From a virus (Duplodnaviria; Caudoviricetes): a stretch of DNA of 25,608 bases. The notes under the pieces are model-generated. The model did not search any database. It worked only from the letters and a program-made list of their open reading frames with translations, and was not told the origin of the DNA. Location: positions 1-25,608 of IMG/VR virus record IMGVR_UViG_3300032225_001959; one strand, written 5' to 3'. Positions 2,161-14,724 of the stretch are shown piece by piece. The stretch's first letter is position 1, and every line of letters begins with the position of its first letter. A program made the position numbers and the translations under genes.

Positions 2161-2424
2161 ATGTTTAAAACTACTATTACTTTTCCAGACGTCATTCTAC
2201 CGAAAAGTTTTATGACTTCTTTAGATAACTACCTGATTCCTTTGGTCGATTCAGGAAAAACAGATGGTTTAGTTTATACATATTTCAGTGACGAGCACTA
2301 TGTCGCTTCGCGGAGATGGCGTGATTTGGAAACGGCTCAACAGTATGTAGATTATACATTATCCCTTTTTGAAATAGATATAAGACCTTCAGTGACATCT
2401 TCAATTGAAGAAATCATTCTCTAA
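2161..2424 (+). CDS. Hypothetical protein (87 aa)
   Basis: GGAGA Shine-Dalgarno before ATG 2161 and TAAATA at 2130-2135. It fills the gap between uvsE and the amidinotransferase and overlaps the latter's 3' end convergently. Confidence 0.65.
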   Translation: MFKTTITFPDVILPKSFMTSLDNYLIPLVDSGKTDGLVYTYFSDEHYVASRRWRDLETAQQYVDYTLSLFEIDIRPSVTSSIEEIIL

Positions 2425-3325
2425 TCAGATCCAAAGTTACACAATGGAAGCCGCCTCCCAATGTGCGGCTATGACGTAATTCCATGGGTATTACCGTGAA
2501 TTTATAGGATTCGAGTGTTCGAATCAGTTCAATTTGGTTCCGGTCACATATGACTGTGTGTGGATCCACTACCAACATATTCATTGCTATCCATTTTGAT
2601 GCATACGGATACTCATGAAATCCCTGTGCTACCACATCATTCACCCAAATTTTGTGCCATCCATCGAATACTTGTGGCACGTTATCAAACGTCACACGGC
2701 TGGCATTGAGCATGACCAGGCCTTCACGTAAGGGCACAATAGTCGAATCAATATGCACCCCTGCGTAGAAGTTGCACAGTTCAATTGTCACACCCGGAAA
2801 TTGTTCACACAACCAATCATATGCTTTGCGATTACCACTTGCAGATTCTAGGAACAACATCTTATCTCCCAGTCTACATACATTGGCCGCATCTAGCACA
2901 AATCCTTCGTTCCTGGGCATGAACAAATAACGGTCGGCACTATCCACTATGTTGTGGTAGCATTGTAATTCCATGTCTCTACATGGATACATCATGGCAG
3001 TGTCAACTATGGTTGATCCGTACACAAGAAGCCGATCACGTGGGCAATAATTGTACATGCCATCGTGAATTTGGAAATTGAGCAGATCCGGACGAACTAC
3101 TTCTACGCCCAGGCTCATCAGTGTTGTTACAAGACTATCCAAGTCTTCGTTGGTTTCTTCAATTATGCGTTGTGAAACAGGACCACGTGGAACAGGTGTT
3201 TCTTTCCAGGTTGTTTTTTCGCCTTCCAGAGCAAACACAGGATCGTTCACAGGCCAATTGGCATCAGTTGCTGATCCTACTACTATGCGTTTGAGTGTAC
3301 TCCACTCGTTGAAACTGCTGATCAT
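2414..3325 (-). CDS. Amidinotransferase (glycine / inosamine-phosphate StrB1-like)
   Basis: Motifs NEWSTLKRIVVG, YNYCPRD, DAANV, HIDSTIVPLREG, WIAMNMLV and HSRTLGGGFHCVTLD. The Asp/His/Cys catalytic residues are intact. A start at 3325 gives an ATGA overlap with the upstream stop. Confidence 0.9.
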   Translation of the reverse strand: MISSFNEWSTLKRIVVGSATDANWPVNDPVFALEGEKTTWKETPVPRGPVSQRIIEETNEDLDSLVTTLMSLGVEVVRPDLLNFQIHDGMYNYCPRDRLLVYGSTIVDTAMMYPCRDMELQCYHNIVDSADRYLFMPRNEGFVLDAANVCRLGDKMLFLESASGNRKAYDWLCEQFPGVTIELCNFYAGVHIDSTIVPLREGLVMLNASRVTFDNVPQVFDGWHKIWVNDVVAQGFHEYPYASKWIAMNMLVVDPHTVICDRNQIELIRTLESYKFTVIPMELRHSRTLGGGFHCVTLDLIRE

Positions 3326-3840
3326 AGCCATCCTGTAAGTTGTAGAGTATATCTTGGATCTAGGCCAAGGTTGGCTGCCATGTGAGGTGCATCATATGCC
3401 CATTCAATCACATCACCTGCTCGCCAATTGATTTTAGCAACACCATCATATTCTGCGTAATGCCCTGATTTCCAATCTTCCAAAAACACAACTGCTCTGC
3501 GTATGCGATGCTCCTGTCCTTGTAGTTTGAACAATTCAATATAGCGTAGGTATAGGTCGCTGTGTGTGGGAAGAACTGTGCCGGTTGTCATTCTATAGTA
3601 ACTGGTACCAATGTTTTTCCACCCTAGATTGCTATAGATATTGACAAATTGATTATTCCATGCAGGTTGTGTACTGCGCATGTCGCACATGTCTCCAGTG
3701 AATTTAGGGTAGTAGCCTTGGTTTGTCCATTTAACAATACTGTCTGCATCATTGAACTGTTCGTTGATGTACAAAAGTTTTTTAAACTCGTTATCCCAAA
3801 ATTTTGGAATATGATATTTAATTATTTCGTGTGTTGCCAT
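3322..3840 (-). CDS. Putative 2OG-Fe(II) oxygenase / cupin-fold protein
   Basis: H-x-D (PTHSD), distal His (APHMAAN) and Arg (PRYTLQ) with double-stranded beta-helix spacing. Confidence 0.65.
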   Translation of the reverse strand: MATHEIIKYHIPKFWDNEFKKLLYINEQFNDADSIVKWTNQGYYPKFTGDMCDMRSTQPAWNNQFVNIYSNLGWKNIGTSYYRMTTGTVLPTHSDLYLRYIELFKLQGQEHRIRRAVVFLEDWKSGHYAEYDGVAKINWRAGDVIEWAYDAPHMAANLGLDPRYTLQLTGWL

Positions 3841-5056
3841 AAGGTATTACAGTTAAGCCTTGTATTGCAGTAAGTTTACGCCAGGGGTCAACAATGATAC
3901 TGCCGCTTGGGATTGTACAGTACGGCAATGTATCTGTTTGGCCATCGATATAATTGTAGGTAATTTTGCGATTGTGTGCCCATAATATCACTGCGGGTCC
4001 TACCAATTCAGAGACCACTTCTGCAGGATCATCTGCCAAGGGGTCAAGATATCGCACCCCAAATCCGGCTTGTTTCACATAGTGTCCTACCAAGGTACTA
4101 TATGATCCAATGCAGTAAGCCACATCAGGTTTGTAGGCCTTGCCATGAATCACAACGCTCATACCGTGTTGTTTGGCTTGATCAACCAAGAACATGGCAA
4201 GGTTCCGTGCTTGTATTTCTCTGGCATGCATTACAGTATCAAACAAGTCGTAGCCGATATCATACTCTTGGGCCAACCAACGCAAGGCAATGTTGTCACG
4301 TGGGTGGCAAGCACCTGCATCGCCCATGCCTGCTGTCATGTACTTGGGGCCCATGATACGCATGGTACTGCGTGACAATGCATTAGTCACAACATCAACA
4401 TTGATGTGTCCTATGCGCATGGCAAAGTCTTGAATCATGTTGACCAAGCCCACTTTGGCCGAAATAAATGTGTTGTAGAATATTTTGATTGCTTCGCACT
4501 CGTCCCAGGTACCAATTTCGTACCGTGGATCGTTTTGCATCACAGTATCATACAACTCACGAAGTTCGCCAGCCAGTGCATTGGGATTGCCATCTTCTGT
4601 ACCGATCATGATCATTTCAGGATTTACCATGTCCCACTTTACACTACCCATGGCAATCAGGTATGGGTTGTACAAGAATTGGTGCCTGCTGTCCAATCTA
4701 GGAACAAATTCCCTGCGTGTGGTTCCCGGCAATACTGTAGAAATCAACACAACCTTTTTGGATTCCAATGCATGGATATTAATTTTGTTTATTGCATCAA
4801 TCACAGCATCATAACCAAAGTCTCGAGGTTCCAGGTGTGAACTAGGAACTGCACCATCATAACCTTCTGCATGTGGAGTAGGAACAGCAATAAAGATCCA
4901 TTCACTTTGGTTCACAAGTTCATTGATGTCACAGACTTTTACTGAGTTGCTTGAGCGTGGGTAAATATCATAGCCTCTGACTTCATGCCGCTCTGCTAGG
5001 ACTTCAGCACAATCAAGACCCAGTTTCCCGATCCCAATAAATCCAATTTTTTTCAT
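3818..5056 (-). CDS. UDP-glucose/GDP-mannose 6-dehydrogenase family protein
   Basis: GIGKLG Rossmann motif, IAVPTP, STVLPGTT, EAIKIFYNTF, GACHPRD (catalytic Cys) and GKAYKPD. Confidence 0.9.
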   Translation of the reverse strand: MKKIGFIGIGKLGLDCAEVLAERHEVRGYDIYPRSSNSVKVCDINELVNQSEWIFIAVPTPHAEGYDGAVPSSHLEPRDFGYDAVIDAINKINIHALESKKVVLISTVLPGTTRREFVPRLDSRHQFLYNPYLIAMGSVKWDMVNPEMIMIGTEDGNPNALAGELRELYDTVMQNDPRYEIGTWDECEAIKIFYNTFISAKVGLVNMIQDFAMRIGHINVDVVTNALSRSTMRIMGPKYMTAGMGDAGACHPRDNIALRWLAQEYDIGYDLFDTVMHAREIQARNLAMFLVDQAKQHGMSVVIHGKAYKPDVAYCIGSYSTLVGHYVKQAGFGVRYLDPLADDPAEVVSELVGPAVILWAHNRKITYNYIDGQTDTLPYCTIPSGSIIVDPWRKLTAIQGLTVIPYGNTRNN

Positions 5057-5059
5057 ATT

Positions 5060-6352
5060 ATGAGTGTACCTTTAGACAGATTATACAATTTTTTAGGCGA
5101 CGTTTGCAACCATGACGATCTAATAATTTATCGGTTTATGCCACACGGCTCAAGAAATTTGCACGATCTTGTTTCATTCTCGGCCAATCAGAATTCAATC
5201 ACTGGAAAAGCATTGATGTTTCATGATCAGGAGTGTTTGAATTATGATTTTTATAACCTGCAGGATTTCGAAGATATATCAAAAAAAATCAAGCGATATT
5301 GGCTGCCAGAATATAATTCCATGTTTCAACCCCACGCTGATAAATTTCACCACATGTTAAAAAACATGCATCTTCGTGCAAAACTCATTTACCCAATTTT
5401 AAATAAAAATGATCAAGTTTTATTGTGTCATTCTGAAAAAAATAGTCGTGAATTAGAACGTTATGAACAGAATAATTTCATTGGTGTGTATTATTGGAGC
5501 CACGCACTTATCGCACGAGATTGGTTCAGATACGCCGAATTAGACCCAGCATTGACTGTTGATTTTGATCAAATTACCAAAGATTTTTTGATATACAATC
5601 GTGCATGGAGTGGCACAAGAGAATACAGATTGACATTTGCAGAAATGCTTTTGAATCAAAATTTACATAGAGTTTGTCATATAAACTTCAACAAAATTGA
5701 TTCAGGAAATTGTTATGTAGATCATAAATTTGCAAACACAGAATTATCAATTGATCGCAAAGATATTGAAAACTATCTAGATTCAAATGATGTTGACGCT
5801 AGTGCCAGTGCTGATTATAACAATAAAGATTATGTTCAATGTGCTATAGAGGTAGTGTTGGAAACACTATTTGACGATCAACGGCAGCATCTTACTGAAA
5901 AAGCATTACGTCCTATTGCTTGCGGACGACCATTTATATTGGCTGCTACACCTAATAGTTTGCAATATCTACGAGACTATGGATTTGAAACTTTTGACGG
6001 ATTAATCAATGAATCATATGATATGATCAATGACCCGAGAGAACGATTATTTGCTATTGTTGAAGAGATGCAAAGAATTAGTTCTTTAGCACCAGATTTG
6101 AAACAAAAACTGTGGCAGCAATTGTATGAGATTTCTGCAAGAAATAAACAATTATTTTTTTCAGATCACTGGCACGATTGCATAGTGTCTGAGTTCAAAA
6201 ATAATTTTGAGTCAGCAATTAAACGTGTGACTTCTACTGAAAAATATTGGAACTATCTAAAAAAATCAGTGGCCGAAGATGACCTAAACTATCATGATTA
6301 TCTTATTTTCGATCCAGATAATTTAATTCAATTTAATCCTATGCGTTCTTGA
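5060..6352 (+). CDS. Hypothetical protein with a glycosyltransferase-like (GT10-like) C-terminal motif
   Basis: 430-aa ORF. The segment EVVLET...LTEKALRPIACGRPFI...LRDYGFETF resembles the E-N/T...TEK donor-binding region of GT10-like proteins. Confidence 0.6.
   Translation: MSVPLDRLYNFLGDVCNHDDLIIYRFMPHGSRNLHDLVSFSANQNSITGKALMFHDQECLNYDFYNLQDFEDISKKIKRYWLPEYNSMFQPHADKFHHMLKNMHLRAKLIYPILNKNDQVLLCHSEKNSRELERYEQNNFIGVYYWSHALIARDWFRYAELDPALTVDFDQITKDFLIYNRAWSGTREYRLTFAEMLLNQNLHRVCHINFNKIDSGNCYVDHKFANTELSIDRKDIENYLDSNDVDASASADYNNKDYVQCAIEVVLETLFDDQRQHLTEKALRPIACGRPFILAATPNSLQYLRDYGFETFDGLINESYDMINDPRERLFAIVEEMQRISSLAPDLKQKLWQQLYEISARNKQLFFSDHWHDCIVSEFKNNFESAIKRVTSTEKYWNYLKKSVAEDDLNYHDYLIFDPDNLIQFNPMRS
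5080..5109 (-). promoter_or_regulatory. Putative sigma70 promoter for the sugar-dehydrogenase operon, inside the divergent gene
   Basis: TTGCAA-18 nt-TATAAT on the minus strand; -10 box 23 nt upstream of ATG 5056. Confidence 0.45.
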
Positions 6353-6719: not shown

Positions 6720-7511
6720 ATGAGTTTAGCATTTGATTTAATTTCTGATTTACATATCGAAACTTGGCCCACTGAATTCGATTGGACGTACCAGGCCACT
6801 AGTCCTGTGTGTATTGTTGCAGGCGACATTTCTCGAGATCGCGATATTCTGGTACGCACTCTTAAACACCTGGGCAAGTGTTACCAAGCAGTATTTTATG
6901 TTGACGGCAACGACGAACATTATCATCAATTAGAGGATCTAGGGCACAGTTATAGCGATCTTACAAAACGACTACGTCGTATTCCCAATGTGGTTTACCT
7001 ACAAGACAATGTGGTGATAGTGGATGGTGTTGCTATTTTGGGCACCAATGGGTGGTGGGGGTTTGATTTCGATTTAGGAATTGATCCCGAACAAGCCTCA
7101 CAATGGGCTCAAAATAGATATCTCATAAACGAAACTGGAACCAAAGGTATAGCAAGAATGAGCAATACTGATGCCACATATATGATATCTAGTGTGGCTA
7201 GATTACAAACTCACAAAGAAGTTCGAAAGATTGTGATGGTTACGCATACTGTGCCAGATCCTGCACTAATTGCACACGATATAGATCTAGATGGTACTAT
7301 GAGATTCAACACCATGGGCAATAGGCTCATGATGCAGGCCATGGCGGCCGACACCGAAAACAAACTACATACCTGGTGTTTTGGGCATTATCACGGTAGC
7401 GTAGATCAGGTTAGATCAGGAATACGATTTGTAAATAATTGTCGCGGTAGAGGAGATACACCCTATGCCAAGACGGTGTATTATCCCCAACGAATTGTTA
7501 TAGATTTTTAA
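6720..7511 (+). CDS. Calcineurin-like metallophosphoesterase
   Basis: Motifs SDLH, AGD, GNDE, TH and GHYH. Confidence 0.85.
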   Translation: MSLAFDLISDLHIETWPTEFDWTYQATSPVCIVAGDISRDRDILVRTLKHLGKCYQAVFYVDGNDEHYHQLEDLGHSYSDLTKRLRRIPNVVYLQDNVVIVDGVAILGTNGWWGFDFDLGIDPEQASQWAQNRYLINETGTKGIARMSNTDATYMISSVARLQTHKEVRKIVMVTHTVPDPALIAHDIDLDGTMRFNTMGNRLMMQAMAADTENKLHTWCFGHYHGSVDQVRSGIRFVNNCRGRGDTPYAKTVYYPQRIVIDF

Positions 7512-7819
7512 ACCTGGCCCTCGGGCTCGACTCTGATCTGCAATGGATAGTTTTGGGCTCGGGCCAACATGGTTACTTCAATGCCTTTTTGTTCGGCCAC
7601 TTCATAAGGTAACACTGCCACACAGGCTGATCCAGCATCATGAATATCAGTTGTGATTGTATGAGCAGTATCCGCGGTGTAGTCAAAGTATTCCATCAAT
7701 GTTTCAACCACAAATTCATATGTGGTTTGATTGTCATTGAGGTATACAACACGGTACATGGGTGGTTCTTTTAAATCCTCAGCAGGTTTAATTCGTGTTC
7801 TTGTGTCGCTTTGTGCCAT
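7508..7819 (-). CDS. clpS: ATP-dependent Clp protease adaptor ClpS
   Basis: PPMYRVVYLNDNQTTYEFVV...IHDAGSA...EVAEQK...AR...YPL. AAGGA SD. Confidence 0.92.
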   Translation of the reverse strand: MAQSDTRTRIKPAEDLKEPPMYRVVYLNDNQTTYEFVVETLMEYFDYTADTAHTITTDIHDAGSACVAVLPYEVAEQKGIEVTMLARAQNYPLQIRVEPEGQV

Positions 7820-7861
7820 TTCAGTTCCTTGTTGTTCAGTAGGAGCACAATGCCCCTACTG

Positions 7862-7900
7862 TATTTACACTATTATATTACACAGTATATGTGATAGCAA
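7862..7900 (-). promoter_or_regulatory. Tandem sigma70-like (TTGCTA-17-TATAAT) and TAAATA promoter motifs upstream of clpS
   Basis: -35 at 7895-7900, -10 at 7872-7877, TAAATA at 7862-7867, followed by an 11-bp leader hairpin. Confidence 0.55.
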
Positions 7901-8330
7901 TAGTCTTTGGCTTGGCGTCTTCCGGCACTTCACGTTTTAAGTGAACACTCAAAATACCCAGTTCAAGGTGTGCATTGCTGATCTCCACATGGTCCGCAAG
8001 TTGGAATTCTCTACGGAAATCTCTGTTGCTAATGCCTTTGTGCAGATAGTTTGGCTCAATTTTTTCACTATCGGGTTGATACTCTTTGCCTTCAATGATC
8101 AAGAACTTTTTGTCCTTGGTCACTGACAGGTTGTCAAGACCAAATCCAGCCACCGCAAGACTAATCATGTACTCATCTTCATTGATTTGTACAATGTTAT
8201 AGGGTGGATAGTTTGAAGTGGATTGTTGAGTACTCACACGCATGAGATCATCAAACATGTTATCAAAACCGATACCAAATTTGTGAAGTGCGGGAATATC
8301 AAAAGAACGAAGGGTGAGAGTTTTTGTCAT
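7878..8330 (-). CDS. Small heat-shock protein (Hsp20, IbpA-like)
   Basis: IGFDNMFD, NYPPYNIV, LAVAGF, YLHKGISNRDFRREFQLA, GILSVHL and the I-x-I tail (IAI). Confidence 0.95.
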   Translation of the reverse strand: MTKTLTLRSFDIPALHKFGIGFDNMFDDLMRVSTQQSTSNYPPYNIVQINEDEYMISLAVAGFGLDNLSVTKDKKFLIIEGKEYQPDSEKIEPNYLHKGISNRDFRREFQLADHVEISNAHLELGILSVHLKREVPEDAKPKTIAITYTV

Positions 8331-8395
8331 TTGTTTTCTCCTTTATAATAAGCAAGATGACTTGTGATGTAGCCCCACTATGGGCACTACATGTT
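8326..8395 (-). promoter_or_regulatory. ROSE-like RNA thermometer in the hsp20 5' UTR
   Basis: UCUU-G-CUU pairs with the SD AAGGAGA with a bulged G. GUCAU can pair with AUGAC at the start codon. An upstream hairpin ATGTAG..CTACAT lies at 8367-8392. Confidence 0.75.
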
Positions 8396-8429
8396 TATTT
8401 ATTATAGAGAAAAAAATTGATTCAGTAAA
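8396..8429 (-). promoter_or_regulatory. Overlapping sigma70-like (TTTACT-17-TATAAT) and TAAATA motifs upstream of hsp20
   Basis: -35 at 8424-8429, -10 at 8401-8406, TAAATA at 8396-8401. Confidence 0.55.
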
Positions 8430-8646
8430 GCTTCTTCGGCAATTCTTGGTTGGCCAGTTTCTTCTTCCAACGATTCTTTGCGGCACTCAATTTGAGTTTA
8501 CGAGCGGTGGTAGGTTTGGTATAAAATTCACGGTCGCGAAGTTCATTCAGCAGTCCTGTTTCCATGATTTTCTTTTTGAACTTGCGTAGAGCCCGGTCTA
8601 CGTTGCCGTCTTGAACTAGTACTGATCTACCCCTGAGCTTTTGCAT
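8422..8646 (-). CDS. rpsU: Phage-encoded ribosomal protein bS21
   Basis: NVDRALRKFKKK...GLLNELRDREFYTKPTTARK..AA..R is the bS21 signature. AAGGA SD, with TAAATA at 8671-8676. Confidence 0.92.
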   Translation of the reverse strand: MQKLRGRSVLVQDGNVDRALRKFKKKIMETGLLNELRDREFYTKPTTARKLKLSAAKNRWKKKLANQELPKKLY

Positions 8647-9838
8647 TCACTTCCTTTAATTCTGTAGGAGTATTTACCTGATTTGTGTCAATAAACACAT
8701 GGTCGATACCTTCCCTACGATAACGGGCCAAATAGAACATATGGGGCAATAGCACACGCTCTAGTTCCGAGTGCAATCCTCTGGCACCAGTTTTGTTTAA
8801 AATAGTGCGATCTGCAATCATTTCTAGTGCATCGGGGCTAAACTCTAGTTCTACTTTGTCTTGCCCAAACAACCAGGAATACTGCTCTATGTAACTGTGT
8901 TTGACATCTAGCAAAATACGGATCAAATCTTCTTTTGTGAGTTCGCTGAGTGCTACCCAACTAGGGAAACGTCCCACAAATTCTGGAATCATACCAAACT
9001 TTATTAGATCTTCGGGTGTGGTTTGATCTAGCGTTACTGTATCGTTTTTAATTTTGGCGCCAAATCCAATACTGGTTCCTTGCACACGATTTTTAACAAC
9101 ATTGTCCAGTCCCACAAACGCACCACCAGCAATAAACAAAATATTAGTGGTATCAATTTCGATCATCTCCCCCGAAGGATGTTTGCGGTTGCCTGTGGGA
9201 GTGACTCTGCACTTGGTGCCTTCTACTAATTTAAGCAAGGCCTGCTGTACACCTTCTCCTGACACGTCTCGTGTGATACTGGCGCTTTCGCTACGTCGAC
9301 TAATTTTGTCAATTTCGTCAATGAACACAATGCCACGCTGTGTTTTGGCAATATCTCCACCGGCGGCTGCAAACAATCTAGAAATCAAACTTTCTACGTC
9401 ATCGCCTACATAACCGGCTTCAGTTAAACTTGTGGCATCTGCAATAACAAATGGCACATCCAAATAACGTGCCACAGTCTTGGCCAGCAATGTTTTGCCC
9501 GATCCTGTGGGACCAAGCATGAGAATATTACATTTCTCAACTTCCACATCTGGATCAGGATTAGTGATGCGTTTGTAGTGATTAACAACTGCTACACTTA
9601 GCACCTGCTTGGCTCGATCCTGGCCAATCACATACCGGTCCAGATGTTGTTTGATCAGCAATGGATCAAGTTCAATGGGCTCGCTTGGTTTGACAATATG
9701 CTCATCGTGAAGCAAGGTCTCACAAAGTTCTACACACTCGTTACAAATTGCAACTTGTTCGCCCACTATAAGTTTGGCCACTACGTCTTTATGTTTACCG
9801 CAAAAACTACAGGTGTTGATTGATTCATTAGATTTCAT
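8627..9838 (-). CDS. clpX: ATP-dependent Clp protease ATP-binding subunit ClpX
   Basis: C4 zinc domain (CSFC..CNEC), Walker A GPTGSGKT, GYVG pore loop, Walker B IVFIDEIDK, RDVSGEGVQQALLK, RKH loop, IGF loop and GARGL. Start placed at MKSNES (9838). Confidence 0.96.
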   Translation of the reverse strand: MKSNESINTCSFCGKHKDVVAKLIVGEQVAICNECVELCETLLHDEHIVKPSEPIELDPLLIKQHLDRYVIGQDRAKQVLSVAVVNHYKRITNPDPDVEVEKCNILMLGPTGSGKTLLAKTVARYLDVPFVIADATSLTEAGYVGDDVESLISRLFAAAGGDIAKTQRGIVFIDEIDKISRRSESASITRDVSGEGVQQALLKLVEGTKCRVTPTGNRKHPSGEMIEIDTTNILFIAGGAFVGLDNVVKNRVQGTSIGFGAKIKNDTVTLDQTTPEDLIKFGMIPEFVGRFPSWVALSELTKEDLIRILLDVKHSYIEQYSWLFGQDKVELEFSPDALEMIADRTILNKTGARGLHSELERVLLPHMFYLARYRREGIDHVFIDTNQVNTPTELKEVNAKAQG

Positions 9839-11387
9839 TAGGATTCTTTGTTTGTAAGTAATGTGCCACTTGTTCACGTTCGCTATCACTCAACAAGTCC
9901 GGATCATATTCACCAGTACTTATTTTATCTATCAGGTGTTCAATGTAAGCCAAGTCGTAAGTGTAACTGTCGCTGAGATTTTTGTCAACTGCAATCCAAT
10001 TGCTTCCATTATATTTGTACAGCACACTGGGCATGACGTCCACTCGCACAAAGGTGTCACCTTTGTTGGAATTTTCTGGAAAACTGATACCAAAGCCACT
10101 GTGACTTTGTCTGCCATCGGCATTGTCGGCCACCAGGCCCATCCAAGGCAATTCGGCAATTTCTCCACGCATAAACTTGTAGCGTTGGTTCTTTATGGTA
10201 TCCTCAGGATTAGCGAGCTTCCATTTTTTGATAGCGGCCTTAATTTCATCATCATCATCAATTTCTTCGTCTGGCGGCTCAACCGCCGGCATTTTGTCAA
10301 ACCGTGACACCATGCGTTCATTATCATACACGTGAAGATCAGGTTCGGGTTCATGATGCTCGTCCACGAACTCGTATTCGATTTCAATTGGTGCAAACTT
10401 GATAGGTTCCTCACCATCGACATTGTCTATTACATCGCATTTCTTGTTGGGGCAAAACAGGCCAATGCCTGGAGCATCTACCAAGGGTGTGCCGCATTTG
10501 TAGCAAGGTATAGGATCATCGGGAGGTTCTGGCACTGACGCTTTTATTTGTTCTATCTGATCCGTGGTTAGCGGACCATCGTCGGGCGGGTACTGGGGTT
10601 CGGGTTCATCATGTATGAATCCTCCGGTGCCTTGCCTTGCCCATTCAAACTGTTTGTTGGCAGCCAGAATTAAAGTTAGTGCTAGTGGGTCAAACACCAA
10701 CACAATCATGATGATTACTAAACGTACAGCACGTTCTAGCACATTCGAATCAGGATTGTCTCCATATACTAATGCCGCAATGTATTTGATTGGACCTACT
10801 TCTGATTCAACCTTGCGGAACTCAGCCGCTAGCGGTGCTCGTTCTTCATTAAGACCAGTAATCTTTTTCTGTTCGGTTTCGATGTCAGCAAGTATCCTAG
10901 CCCGTTCACGTTGCTGGCCTCTTCGTATTGCAACTGCTTTGTCGGCACCTTTTTCATCTGCTGATCGGCCCATAACTTGGTCCACAGCCTCATCCATCTG
11001 TTTAAGTGCCCGGCGGTCGGCTTCAATATTGTCACGAGATATCTTGATCTTTTCATCGTAGATTGCTACCTTTGCTACTGCGTCACCTGATACCAGGCTT
11101 TGGTCTGAATGGGCCTTGGAGAGATATCCAAAGATGCCCATTGATGTCAACAGCATCAGGAATGCCACAGCAGGAACCAGATACACCTTGAACAACACTC
11201 CTACTCGTTGCCAGTTGTTGTGCAACCAAACAGTGGCCACAATCTTTCCCAGTTCCAATGAGCCGCCCATGATCATCACAGGTATGGCTGCCGCGGAGAA
11301 GATGGCTGTCAAGCCTGCTACTGAATAATAAGCGGCCACACAACTAAGCAAGATTGCTGTGGACAGGATGCTGAAACCAAATATCAT
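9828..11387 (-). CDS. Membrane-anchored coiled-coil protein with a Zn-ribbon-like motif and an acidic C-terminal region
   Basis: Three N-terminal TM helices, a long coiled coil, a fourth TM (LVIIMIVLVFDPLALTLILAA), CYKC..CPNKKC and a Pro/acidic linker. TAAATA lies 7 nt before the ATG. Confidence 0.75.
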   Translation of the reverse strand: MIFGFSILSTAILLSCVAAYYSVAGLTAIFSAAAIPVMIMGGSLELGKIVATVWLHNNWQRVGVLFKVYLVPAVAFLMLLTSMGIFGYLSKAHSDQSLVSGDAVAKVAIYDEKIKISRDNIEADRRALKQMDEAVDQVMGRSADEKGADKAVAIRRGQQRERARILADIETEQKKITGLNEERAPLAAEFRKVESEVGPIKYIAALVYGDNPDSNVLERAVRLVIIMIVLVFDPLALTLILAANKQFEWARQGTGGFIHDEPEPQYPPDDGPLTTDQIEQIKASVPEPPDDPIPCYKCGTPLVDAPGIGLFCPNKKCDVIDNVDGEEPIKFAPIEIEYEFVDEHHEPEPDLHVYDNERMVSRFDKMPAVEPPDEEIDDDDEIKAAIKKWKLANPEDTIKNQRYKFMRGEIAELPWMGLVADNADGRQSHSGFGISFPENSNKGDTFVRVDVMPSVLYKYNGSNWIAVDKNLSDSYTYDLAYIEHLIDKISTGEYDPDLLSDSEREQVAHYLQTKNPNEI

Positions 11388-11393
11388 AGAGTA

Positions 11394-11708
11394 TTATTTA
11401 CCGGGTTCTACTTGTCGTACCGCATGTTTGATTGCTATCCAGGTACCAAATGCAGGATCTGGCACCTCAAACCACACACGTTCTGCATGTCCATCCAGGC
11501 GCCAGAGACTGGCATGTTCAAGTCGCCGTTTGACATGGGCTTGACTACGCCAGTTTCGACCAAACTGTGCTCGTGCTTCTCGCATGATATCATACCATGT
11601 GTCCACACTTGACAGTTCGAAATATAATTTGTGCATGGGCAAGGCCGTTGTTTTAAGAGAGTCAAGGGACGGAAGCATGAAATCAGTGGCTTCTATTTTA
11701 ACAGACAT
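11394..11708 (-). CDS. Hypothetical protein (104 aa)
   Basis: AAAGGA SD. An in-frame TAA directly before the ATG fixes the earliest possible start. Confidence 0.7.
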   Translation of the reverse strand: MSVKIEATDFMLPSLDSLKTTALPMHKLYFELSSVDTWYDIMREARAQFGRNWRSQAHVKRRLEHASLWRLDGHAERVWFEVPDPAFGTWIAIKHAVRQVEPGK

Positions 11709-11719
11709 TTACATTCCTT

Positions 11720-11900
11720 TCACTGTGATTTCCAACTTGAGCATACACCGGGTATCAGCCGGTTTTGACTCATTGCTGAGTCTTGGACAGTGTCTCAACC
11801 TTGTGGGCATTATATCTACCTGCCACGGCTATGTCGGGCCCGGGCGTTCACGCACCCCGCTCATACCATTAGATCGCCACCATTTTCTTGCTCATGCACA
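11720..11900 (-). ncRNA. Candidate structured noncoding RNA or long cis-regulatory leader
   Basis: Gap of about 190 nt directly after a consensus promoter, with at least four hairpins (one capped by a GNRA loop) and a closing helix TGAGCA/TGCTCA. Confidence 0.65.
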
Positions 11901-11905
11901 AAGTT

Positions 11906-11935
11906 ATTATACATGAGGAGTGGTGACAGTGTCAA
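11906..11935 (-). promoter_or_regulatory. Sigma70-type promoter
   Basis: TTGACA-18 nt-TATAAT. Confidence 0.8.
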
Positions 11936-11936
11936 C

Positions 11937-12320
11937 TTACTGTTGTTCTAAACTCAATGGTCCATTAAACCAAGTTTCTGTGTCATCCTGGCTCCAGCCT
12001 TCGCCTTCCCAGGCATCATAGCCTTCTTCGTCCCAGAGTTCATCCATGCGTTGTTGTTCTTCCTCGCTCATGTCTTCAGGATATTCAACATCTACCCAGC
12101 AACCATCATCTAGATTGTCAAGTTCAAAGTCATAGTCGGTGGCAAATACTTCAAGTCCGTCAGGATTTTCTAAATCAATATCAGGTCTTTCGTCACTTTC
12201 ACAATACACTGTGCCCCAACGAAAGCCGGTGCTACGTTTGATTATTTTTCCGTCCTTGTACCAGAACTCAGTCTCTACGACGTTTTTCTTTTCTAGTGTT
12301 GTAAGTACCCATGTAGTCAT
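11937..12320 (-). CDS. Acidic hypothetical protein (127 aa)
   Basis: Tightly packed ORF after yccA with an AGGA SD. Very rich in D, E and W. Confidence 0.75.
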   Translation of the reverse strand: MTTWVLTTLEKKNVVETEFWYKDGKIIKRSTGFRWGTVYCESDERPDIDLENPDGLEVFATDYDFELDNLDDGCWVDVEYPEDMSEEEQQRMDELWDEEGYDAWEGEGWSQDDTETWFNGPLSLEQQ

Positions 12321-12322
12321 GA

Positions 12323-13012
12323 TTATTTCCTATCCCCAAACAGTTGTAACAAATTCAAGAACAAGTTGATAAAGTCCATGTAGAGTGTCAACGCACCACG
12401 CACCTCTGCGGCATCAGTAGTTTCTACACTGAGTTCTTCACGGATCTGTTGTGTGTCATAGGCAGTCAGGCCCAGAAAGATGACAATGGCCAGAGCAGAG
12501 ATCACCATCTGCATCACGGTGCTGCCAATAAAGATGTTGACTATACTGGCAATACAGATGGCGATCAAACCAACAAACATAAACTGTCCCATGCTCTCAA
12601 GACTGTGTTTGGTAAAATATCCATAGCCACTCATGACCGCAAACAAGATGGCTGACCCCATGAATGCACTCACAATTGACCCCATGGCAAACACAGCAAA
12701 GATCATTGAGAAACTCAGGCCCATCAAGGCCGCAAAGCCATGTAGGCATAACTGTGCCACTGGTTTGCTTGGATCATTGCCCAGCACCATGCTCACACCA
12801 AATATGGCTGCCAAGGGTGCAAAGATCACAATCCACTTCATTACACCTGTAAAAAAGAACTGTAGCAACTCAGGTGTGGTTCCCACCCAGTAACTGACCA
12901 GCATCGACACGATCACTGCTAGACTCATGTGTCCGTAAACACGGCCCATGGCTGTGTTGATTTGCTCTGCTGAACGGTATTGTTCATCATTAAATATAAC
13001 GGTATCATTCAT
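12323..13012 (-). CDS. Bax inhibitor-1/YccA family membrane protein
   Basis: Seven TM helices with RVYGHM, YGYFTK, GLTAYDTQQI and GALTLYMDFINLFLNLL. AAGGAG SD. Confidence 0.92.
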   Translation of the reverse strand: MNDTVIFNDEQYRSAEQINTAMGRVYGHMSLAVIVSMLVSYWVGTTPELLQFFFTGVMKWIVIFAPLAAIFGVSMVLGNDPSKPVAQLCLHGFAALMGLSFSMIFAVFAMGSIVSAFMGSAILFAVMSGYGYFTKHSLESMGQFMFVGLIAICIASIVNIFIGSTVMQMVISALAIVIFLGLTAYDTQQIREELSVETTDAAEVRGALTLYMDFINLFLNLLQLFGDRK

Positions 13013-13023
13013 AATATTCTCCT

Positions 13024-14205
13024 TTAAGGTCTATTGGTTGGCCACTTGGTAGCGTCGGCCATTGCTTCATCTTCTACGCTGAGTATTTCTACATAACTAC
13101 TGCACTCTGGACATACCATCTCATCGTCTGCATTATTTAACGTATCGTCAATGGGACCTTCCCATGCACAGCCTTTACAGGCACAATTGATGAGTTTTAA
13201 TCCTTCTGCCGCATCTGATGCCGTCAATGCTTCAAACTCTGCTTTGAGTTCTTCCAGTGCATCTTCTAGATCCATTACTCGATCTTCTGTAGTGCCCGCA
13301 TCTGGATCTTGTGCAAGTCCGCGCCATTCTTTGATCTTGATTATCTTGTCTGGATCATCATAGTCCTCTTCAACTGTCCAACTGTTGACCCAATTGGATC
13401 CTGTCCACAATCCGCGATGTTCCCAGGAGTTTTTGCCTGCAGTTTTGATCATGTACTGACCCACGTGTACTGGTTTGACTTTCTTGGGGAACCATTCGGT
13501 CATTTCATACTCAATGTCATCCATGGTGGCATATTTTTCCCAGGTGTTTGAATCCTTGATCAAGTACAAACCAAACTCCGAGCCTTTGCCATTGGTATCG
13601 CCACCCCAGTTGTCGATTTGTTCACCATCGTATTTGACACTATTGATGATGTCACAGCCGTCAATCTCGTCGTAGCCCAGTTCCAATTTTGTGATGTCAA
13701 ATGGTTGCTTGAGTTCAATTTCACCTTCAAAGAATGTGCCTTTTTCACTGCTGACCCCGAAGAATACCACAGTACCCACAGGGTTCATACCAATCCAGTA
13801 TTCCTCGCCACCGCCCCATTCAGGTTCAGGGTTGCCATCATTGTCTTCATAACCTGTAATATCTTCTAGACGTTTTTCATAAATGGTATCACCATTTTCA
13901 TCGTCAATTTGTACCGTACCAGCATTGCGGTCAAGACCATGTTCGTGACATATATTGTCGCAATCATAGTAACTGCCTGGTGTGAATGGCCACATTTCTT
14001 CGGGAATATTGTTTTCTTCTGCGTAGTCACTTTGCCAGGCAAATTCGCTGAGATCCAATCTACGATGTCGGAAGTAATCGTAGATCTTGCGATCTACACT
14101 ACCCATGATATACTCACCACCGTAACCCCACAAATGAATCTTGTAGGTACGTGGAGTAAATTTTAAAACTTCAATAAGTTTTTCATGTTCTTTAACTGTA
14201 GCCAT
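13024..14205 (-). CDS. Acidic multidomain hypothetical protein with a C-terminal Zn-ribbon-like motif
   Basis: 393-aa ORF with a GAGGA SD and CKGC...CPEC near the C-terminus. Confidence 0.75.
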   Translation of the reverse strand: MATVKEHEKLIEVLKFTPRTYKIHLWGYGGEYIMGSVDRKIYDYFRHRRLDLSEFAWQSDYAEENNIPEEMWPFTPGSYYDCDNICHEHGLDRNAGTVQIDDENGDTIYEKRLEDITGYEDNDGNPEPEWGGGEEYWIGMNPVGTVVFFGVSSEKGTFFEGEIELKQPFDITKLELGYDEIDGCDIINSVKYDGEQIDNWGGDTNGKGSEFGLYLIKDSNTWEKYATMDDIEYEMTEWFPKKVKPVHVGQYMIKTAGKNSWEHRGLWTGSNWVNSWTVEEDYDDPDKIIKIKEWRGLAQDPDAGTTEDRVMDLEDALEELKAEFEALTASDAAEGLKLINCACKGCAWEGPIDDTLNNADDEMVCPECSSYVEILSVEDEAMADATKWPTNRP

Positions 14206-14206
14206 T

Positions 14207-14317
14207 TTAGTCCTCTATTAAAAAATATCCCGAAGCCGGGTACTGCACTTGTAACCATTCCAGCAGACCTGGTTCCCATGGTAATTGTATTTCTAAATTT
14301 CGAGATGAAATTTTCAT
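14207..14317 (-). CDS. Small hypothetical protein (36 aa, MKISSRNLEIQLPWEPGLLEWLQVQYPASGYFLIED)
   Basis: Below the track cutoff. ATGA overlap with the upstream stop; ends 1 nt before the next ATG and fills the gap exactly. Confidence 0.65.
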   Translation of the reverse strand: MKISSRNLEIQLPWEPGLLEWLQVQYPASGYFLIED

Positions 14318-14724
14318 CTATAACTCTTGTCTAGTCGGGTATTGGTCAAACCTGCAATGGTCTGAAACTGATCCCAAGCATCTTTCACTGCAGGACGATT
14401 CATCATCTCTGAATCAGGTAGCACAGTTTCCAACCATATTTCAGGGCGACGAGCAGGATTCCATCCAAACTTGCGTGGCTGGTGGAACTTGCCTGTTTCC
14501 CAAAGTTCAATGCTGACGCTTCGGAATCGATCTTCATCTGCATCCTCGTACTCATACCATTCAGGATTGCTACCAAAGCGATAGCCTTTCCAGATACCCT
14601 GCCACTGTTCATCATCTCGTGGATCAAAATCTGTACGAGTGATCAGCACAAGGACATCCGCAATGTCCACTCGACCTTCTACAATGTCTTTGACGCATCG
14701 GCTGTAACTGAGTCCAATTTTCAT
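14314..14724 (-). CDS. Hypothetical protein (136 aa)
   Basis: ATGA overlaps at both ends. Confidence 0.75.
   Translation of the reverse strand: MKIGLSYSRCVKDIVEGRVDIADVLVLITRTDFDPRDDEQWQGIWKGYRFGSNPEWYEYEDADEDRFRSVSIELWETGKFHQPRKFGWNPARRPEIWLETVLPDSEMMNRPAVKDAWDQFQTIAGLTNTRLDKSYR

Follow-up and report, generated by a model that had tools for sequence, protein, structure and literature searches.

The minus strand of the window, a 25.6-kb virus record analysed over its whole length of 25,608 nucleotides, carries at positions 11632..11897 a structured RNA of 266 nt which, judged from strong comparative sequence evidence, is a real and uncatalogued RNA class of giant lake phages. Its extent is drawn from covariation, from the lengths of its homologs and from the ends of contigs in RNA libraries. 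An initial annotation of the window had proposed a new, conserved and promoter-driven structured RNA at this place. Covariation and the absence of a matching Rfam family bear this proposal out; the size of about 190 nt with an end at 11720 and the closing helix given for it were wrong, as the RNA closes at 11632 and runs 26 codons into the gene of a 104-aa protein.

New ribozymes and RNA machines are chiefly sought among large structured RNAs whose junction bases are invariant, and few such large RNAs are known from phages. The phage RNA is small (~220–300 nt) and probably has defined ends, so that its activity is directly testable. Phages with and without the RNA offer a natural, built-in comparison.

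Locus, promoter and operon

The RNA is preceded by a minus-strand promoter of the sigma-70 type (11906..11935), with the −35 hexamer at 11935–11930 and the −10 hexamer at 11911–11906. This TTGACA-18-TATAAT, already recognised in the initial annotation, matches at 12 of 12 positions, is the best of 15 promoter sites within 9000–14500 and keeps both hexamers across 22 close homologs. Counted downstream from the −10 hexamer, the RNA's first G stands at the seventh base in 98 of 138 distinct copies and at the ninth in 38 of them, as in the window copy. The gap at 11709–11936 (228 nt) is the longest and, with a GC fraction of 0.49 vs 0.22–0.42, the most GC-rich of the nine window gaps above 30 nt, and no terminator-like site lies within it, all in agreement with the earlier description.

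The 104-aa basic protein is encoded downstream on the minus strand (11394..11708), followed by a 519-aa protein as the second gene of the run (9828..11387, minus strand, called from the sequence). The two genes adjoin each other in 54/54 loci tested. The 519-aa protein matched no family above the cut-off in Pfam, PHROG or NCBIfam; it has hydrophobic stretches that likely span the membrane, and likely a coiled coil too. The remainder of the likely operon (7508..9889) consists of the minus-strand genes for ClpX (8627–9889), ribosomal protein S21 (8422–8646), Hsp20 (7878–8330) and ClpS (7508–7819), each identified by a Pfam match above the cut-off.

The DNA upstream of the promoter varies. The acidic 127-aa gene found there in the window (11937–12320) is a variable insert, other genes take its place in other loci, and one contig from an RNA run skips 11957–12322. 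In eight loci of a divergent class of the RNA (L311, L313, L314, L316, L318, L319, L322 and L325), terminator-like hairpins followed by T runs stand just upstream of the promoter and separate it from the upstream genes. Further along, the window encodes a phage Bax inhibitor-1/YccA-family membrane protein (12323–13012) near the protease and chaperone gene run. A UDP-glucose dehydrogenase is clustered with three unassigned enzyme-sized genes at 2414–6352.

Secondary structure and covariation

The fold was derived from a main alignment of 43 sequences below 90% identity and comprises 51 pairs in 13 helices. Covariation, proposed in the initial annotation as a check, is found in 33 of the 51 pairs, which show compensatory changes among the 43 homologs. 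The pairs are formed in 95.6% of cells, vs 28–41% for slid registers. A deeper alignment of 44 sequences, including 15 divergent ones, has a mean column identity of 51%, and 25 of the 30 pairs in the 3' two thirds of the RNA change on both sides. Over both alignments, the true register pairs in 91–96% of cells and slid registers in 26–44%; since the pairs were picked from the same alignments, these shuffle controls are not probabilities. Mutual information computed on the plain alignments, with no structure supplied, ranked true pairs first, the top pair being 11878–11805, and its pairs show the fold entering the 104-aa gene. About 60 positions are conserved at 97% or more in 60 representatives.

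By folding energy, a check named with the initial annotation, the window copy does no better than shuffled sequences: z is +0.27 over 186 nt and −0.42 over the full 266 nt. Six homologs range from z −4.0 to +0.6, the slice being off by one base for two of them. It is covariation, then, and not energy that carries the structure. Single-sequence folding, itself no better than for shuffles, agreed with the comparative structure in only 16 of 69 pairs, and RNAalifold on the plain alignment recovered seven pairs; both were set aside.

The ends of the RNA are joined by the covarying terminal stem P0, whose 5' strand (11887..11897) pairs with 11633–11643. The 3' strand, together with an overhanging A at 11632 (11632..11643), falls inside codons 22–26 of the 104-aa gene. 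P0 is paired in 96.6% of cells, 8 of its 11 pairs show compensatory changes, and at least 10 of the 11 form in 136 of 138 copies. It encloses domain I and the long-range helix K, and helix K in turn encloses domains II and III. Helix K, supported by covariation, pairs 11796–11793 with 11657–11660 (11657..11796); its four pairs are present in 44 of 44 sequences with eight different 5' strands, and it is followed by a conserved CUURRA-NN-AAC run.

Domain I (11803..11880, covarying) holds helix P1 with one bulged base (11807), helix P2 (11874–11870/11814–11818, 5/5 pairs compensatory), the variable hairpin P3 (11867–11827), which is short in locus L077, and a conserved GUGGC loop strand. The L077 copy (L077:2856-3093) is a natural minimal version of 222 nt from which P3 is nearly all gone, and would make a good construct for structure work. 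Domain II (11721..11792, covarying) is composed of P4 (11792–11787/11721–11726), P5, the GNRA hairpin P6 (11782–11767), a conserved run of A and the hairpin P7 (11763–11747). Domain III (11661..11720) consists of hairpin P8, which carries a Shine-Dalgarno-like AAAGGA and the AUG at 11708–11706, and of P9 (11702–11698/11661–11665) and P10 (11693–11689/11672–11676), paired in 99% and 97% of cells, respectively, each with compensatory changes.

Domains I and II are likely connected by a pseudoknot in which 11824–11821 pairs with 11740–11743 (11740..11824). Support is moderate: the main class pairs in 98% of cells with zero compensatory change, and in the 15 divergent copies the fourth pair reads G–C, U–A, C–G, U–G or A–U in seven and is broken in eight.

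Parts of this fold had been recognised from the single sequence. The GNRA hairpin at 11767–11782, the hairpin at 11747–11763 and the outer stem 11867–11862/11833–11827 all exist and covary. The supposed closing helix TGAGCA/TGCTCA was not confirmed, its six pairs forming in 2/5, 20/42, 15/43, 6/43, 43/43 and 39/43 homologs, and the same is true of GTGGCA/TGCCCAC (9/43, 6/43, 27/41, 43/43, 27/43 and 4/43); the strands of both covary with other partners. The inner GCGT/ACGC stem is not conserved. Two further ideas were rejected. The hairpin loop 11752–11758 is hardly an anticodon mimic, as several homologs have another hairpin there or a longer one, and a DNA transposon with terminal repeats does not suit a terminal stem rich in G–U pairs and an element that is single-copy at a fixed place.

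Overlap with the gene of the 104-aa protein

The distance from the AUG to the end of the RNA is 77, 80 or 83 nt in 135 of 136 main-class copies called, which suggests that the overlap is translated in frame. The RNA is 222–276 nt long in this class and 282–303 nt in the divergent class (17 loci). The latter has lost the main-class AUG; its gene begins instead at an AUG further on, in P10, preceded by a new GGAG. Helix K, P4, P9 and many unpaired bases are retained despite this shift of the start codon from P8 to P10, so no single ribosome site dictates the architecture of the core. In both classes the start codon lies inside the fold and the RNA lies 5' of the initiation region, as in a translational operator; in the window copy the start codon is held by just 3–4 weak pairs.

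The 104-aa protein is predicted to be disordered over residues 1–20, and residues 26–100 are predicted to form a small alpha/beta fold that starts where the RNA ends (AlphaFold pLDDT 78.5). The fold was likened to ferredoxin-like domains, with a generic best structural Z of 7.0 and no clear relative. No family was found in Pfam or PHROG, NCBIfam gave at most E 0.1, Foldseek returned no match at E 0.001 or better, and the ESM Atlas yielded unnamed viral clusters only.

Homologs and occurrence among phages

Searches with the 104-aa protein gave 21 loci, then the best 80 of 112 viral and the best 80 of 156 metagenomic loci. From these, 93 distinct upstream RNA copies were obtained; the extraction pattern failed to fit 5 loci, and another 13 lacked sufficient length. 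A pattern for the RNA that is independent of the protein found 111 viral loci, 104 of them with the RNA, and wherever the flank of a copy found by this pattern was long enough, the small protein gene came after the RNA (101 of 101). A profile search detected the RNA in 280 of the 296 sequences collected by then, 138 of them distinct at full length.

No Rfam family matched, the outcome under which the initial annotation had considered the RNA new. In Rfam 15, searched with the whole window, the gap alone, locus L046 and six further loci, all matches were at chance level (10–26 bits) and below threshold. ARAGORN found no tRNA or tmRNA, and BLAST against cultured-phage records found neither the RNA nor the 104-aa protein. 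In the literature, no title or abstract describing the RNA was found; four files of the PMC10690425 supplement hold none of the motifs searched for, and the RNA may be in the remainder of that catalogue. Near-complete relatives bearing the RNA are 320–364 kb in size with 23–32 tRNAs (5/5 genomes); in all five the RNA is single-copy and far from the tRNA arrays. The sole real match among GTDB genomes is a phage-like contig in one metagenome bin. A bin labelled Haliscomenobacter (L297; G051:C31 and C57) has two contigs with the RNA; the genes of the one examined are in phage order, which makes wrongly binned phage DNA no less likely than a link to a host. In a single contig (L099:3040-3075), a deletion has taken away the 3' strand of P0 together with part of the protein start, a broken copy or an assembly error.

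A search with distant proteins added 45 loci, of which, judged by eye and with duplicates collapsed, 18 have the RNA (17 in divergent form) and 27 lack it while the small protein is intact. The tie between the RNA and the 104-aa gene proposed in the initial annotation is supported, the gene coming after the RNA in 101 of 101 copies; obligate pairing with the protein is weakened by these 27 of 45 loci. Model R2 gave 92–115 bits for three RNA-bearing controls and, in 11 RNA-less loci, no match where the RNA would be expected; nor is there a copy elsewhere in five near-complete genomes that lack the RNA (5/5).

On a 54-row tree, RNA-less rows are nested among RNA-bearing ones, and RNA presence changes seven times, at least five of these changes being forced by strong branches; the tree is a quick version, rooted for drawing only, with two very long branches that are probably wrongly picked frames. 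The RNA has been gained or lost at least five times while the protein stayed, repeated loss being the simplest reading, and it is an accessory module. Of the records compared, many of which are fragments, S21 was found in 14 of the 22 without the RNA and in 24 of the 28 with it. As the protein is intact without the RNA, and S21 occurs with and without it, neither is a dedicated partner. That the RNA is never found away from the small-protein gene (101/101) suits a cis element and counts against a stand-alone RNA.

In RNA-less loci the protein usually lacks its first ~20 residues. The small gene starts 5–6 nt after a −10-like hexamer in 10 of 19 loci (L306, L308, L320, L321, L323, L324, L327, L328, L332 and L344, around position 2501 in each), and judging from this spacing its message is likely leaderless there. 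Locus L096 keeps part of the residues lost elsewhere, and the protein stands next to a seeming remnant of the RNA 3' end (L096:2970-3050), the 5' 200 nt being gone; this is possibly a recent loss of the RNA.

Contig ends in RNA libraries

Nineteen sequencing runs from 14 studies hold 5–12% of the words of a 1.6-kb stretch. Seven of the 19 were examined, namely six RNA runs and X1, which is probably DNA. They were chosen for holding the stretch, and the assembled contigs cannot show strand, level or true ends. In three RNA runs from three studies, coverage within 11480–12020 is confined to 11632–11897. In run X12, a contig 95–99% like the window has its first letter exactly at 11632, with no loose end. 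In run X7, a 225-nt contig of a relative's variant passes from 11632 straight into 81 further letters, and all 30 letters shown at this joint equal the 5' start of locus L185 from the first G. The joint is oriented head to tail, not as a fold-back, and has no added letters. The joined form at the RNA is absent from every fetched locus, and in X1 the window-like variant continues beyond 11632 and 11897 and the L185-like variant beyond 11632.

As to metatranscriptome ends, which the initial annotation recommended looking at, two of the six RNA runs mark 11632; X8, X10 and X13, like the window-like contigs of X7, end early, at 11647–11725, and a contig of X6 (11572–11768) crosses 11632. The joint occurs in one contig of one of the six RNA runs and alone marks the 5' end of the RNA; as contig depth is a mean, the joint may be rare. 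It could result from a reverse-transcriptase jump across the closed terminal stem. Whether circle or library artefact, it places one end of the RNA on the base that opens the terminal stem and the other one base past the stem. The summed contig depth in X7 is 450 over 11687–11797 vs 0–57 outside the RNA, which is no measure of level. Two contigs thus give a first, limited sign that the RNA exists as a discrete, possibly circular molecule. Rolling translation of such a circle was rejected, as the stop position is not conserved (three copies, read by hand).

Possible function and alternative explanations

About an even chance can be given to a stable stand-alone RNA that would be cut from the operon transcript and whose folding would compete with translation of the overlapped gene. 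It would act as the core of an RNA–protein particle; candidate partners, by analogy with OLE RNA, are the 104-aa protein, the membrane protein and S21. A role in phage translation or protein quality control is the most likely candidate. Transcription would start at, or two bases before, G11897, and the new transcript would have two exclusive fates. In one, a ribosome on the internal start codon would melt helix K and P0, and the protein would be made. In the other, the transcript would fold first, be cut downstream in the AU-rich sequence beyond P0 and be trimmed to A11632; some trimmed molecules may then be joined end to end. Stable bacterial RNAs are trimmed to a short overhang. Because the cut-and-trim fate destroys the gene start, RNA supply and protein synthesis would be coupled, possibly with feedback in which the protein favours the folded fate. 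If true, this coupling would be an unusual one, in which a stable RNA is made by a cut through the first part of a translated gene.

A cis-acting translational operator is a possible reading, with a clearly smaller chance than the stand-alone RNA. The fold would close over the start of the first gene, and a ligand would keep it closed and so tune the operon; the simplest such ligand would be the 104-aa protein or S21. The discrete RNA would then be the stable leftover after the message is cut, as folded leaders can persist as stable decay leftovers, and the joint would be a library artefact. The RNA is always directly ahead of and overlaps the same gene (101/101). In 10 of 19 RNA-less loci the gene starts 5–6 nt past a −10-like hexamer, and the RNA thus takes the place expected of a leader. 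The start codon falls within the fold in both classes, at different places, and the protein survives loss of the RNA, like regulators that have another main target. Fixed position and protein survival are thus explained equally well by a leader; the invariant core and the exact ends are explained less well. Three domains, some 60 positions at 97% or more and a terminal stem of 11–12 bp exceed, in our judgement, what gating needs, just 3–4 weak pairs hold the start codon in the window copy, and contigs from two studies end exactly one base past the terminal stem. Even as a leader only, the RNA would be a translational operator that is new and unusually large.

Catalytic readings have lower probabilities. 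It is unlikely that the RNA is a circular ribozyme resembling a stripped-down RNase P core, which would excise itself from the front of the operon message and thereby switch the operon off. A much reduced RNase P-like ribozyme that matures the phage tRNA arrays, with the small protein as helper, is quite improbable. The order of elements resembles RNase P RNA when compared by eye with the Rfam consensus. As in class A (RF00010), a terminal stem of similar length, here 11–12 bp and covarying, joins the 5' and 3' ends, and the 3' strand of the long-range helix ends, by eye, in CUUA close to that stem; next come, again by eye, a stacked helix bearing two hairpins, then a joint rich in A, then another two helices. 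RNA-bearing genomes hold 23–32 tRNAs (5/5), and reduced RNase P RNAs exist according to the part of PMC13462272 available, which also describes type T RNase P as retaining a conserved core that is absent from the phage RNA. No signal of homology appeared in model or profile tests, for which the E. coli RNA was the sole direct comparison: it scores at noise level with model R1 (2.3 bits, E 8.7), has no match with R2, and is rated by three sequence profiles no higher than 300 shuffles. RNase P P4 is a pseudoknot of ~8 pairs formed by regions I and V with a bulged U, whereas helix K has four pairs, is nested and lacks an internal bulged U; the bulged helix P1 of the phage RNA is local, and its bulge is a C in the window copy, unlike the bulged U of RNase P. 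There is no equivalent of P2/P3, and no GGAAAGUCC region and no region I/IV in order; the strand after P0 has no covarying partner that would make a long-range P2, a candidate P2 between 11884–11882 and 11668–11670 shows no compensatory change, and 11670, a candidate position, pairs locally. RnpA is absent from 10/10 genomes, and RNA-less genomes carry tRNA arrays too (17–21 tRNAs in 4/5, at a stricter cut-off). A permuted RNase P or a group I intron, considered on the basis of motifs, had no Rfam support.

Least probable of all is a new kind of self-processing RNA, which would cut or join its own ends and circulate as a circle. The head-to-tail joint is clean, with no added letters, the 5' end lies at the likely transcription start and next to the 3' end, and many junction bases are invariant. 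A phage RNA ligase was not found with the three families tried (the control of one search was blank). The joint is present in one contig only, X12 has a plain stop at 11632, as a linear end would give, and no ribozyme family in Rfam matched. Bacterial circles can arise without known catalysis, as described in the available part of PMC10504365. The stand-alone RNA remains the preferred explanation.

Comparison with known RNAs

OLE is the closest analogue in gene neighbourhood. The ole gene adjoins the gene of its membrane protein, and OLE RNA binds bS21 (PMC12054373, in the part available). The phage RNA is likewise a large structured RNA beside a membrane-protein gene, with S21 three genes on; this likeness is one of gene neighbourhood only. 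OLE measures ~600 nt, compared with 266 nt here, and belongs to Bacillota chromosomes rather than phages; the phage RNA has no Rfam match, and the 519-aa protein is much larger than the 21-kDa OapA and has no family match. The OLE particle has OapA, OapB, OapC and bS21 as partners. In PMC9723584, phages with bS21 show a different gene context, and neither "noncoding" nor "intergenic" appears in the part of that article available.

ROOL and GOLLD are ornate phage RNAs whose function is unknown and which are often near tRNA islands, according to the accessible part of PMC12286853. They share with the phage RNA an ornate structure and a home in phages with tRNA arrays. The phage RNA differs in being smaller, in having no Rfam match, in lying far from the tRNA arrays (5/5) and in overlapping a translated gene. 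At 222–303 nt it stays below the 500–800 nt or more that characterise OLE, ROOL and GOLLD.

Among autogenous leaders, no Rfam family matched the phage RNA. The E. coli alpha-operon S4 pseudoknot is an autogenous translational operator. Its fold likewise encloses the ribosome site and early codons of the first gene, in an operon with a translation gene; the phage RNA is more than twice as large, has a closed terminal stem and shows signs of a discrete product. DucS of Bacillus altitudinis is a bacterial noncoding RNA reported in linear and circular forms (PMC10504365). For the phage RNA a circular form is a possibility that comes from one contig.

ARAGORN's lack of a tmRNA agrees with the terminal stem, whose third pair is A–U in 43/43 sequences and so differs from an alanine-type acceptor. 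Sub-threshold matches to the tmRNA model RF00023 occur in 9 of 10 genomes, all elsewhere than the phage RNA. Pieces of this kind at G002:C1:105127-105627, G004:C1:146543-146597, G005:C1:219021-219076, G017:C1:287977-288199 and G027:C1:203295-203634 lie in or near the tRNA regions; they might be divergent or two-piece tmRNAs.
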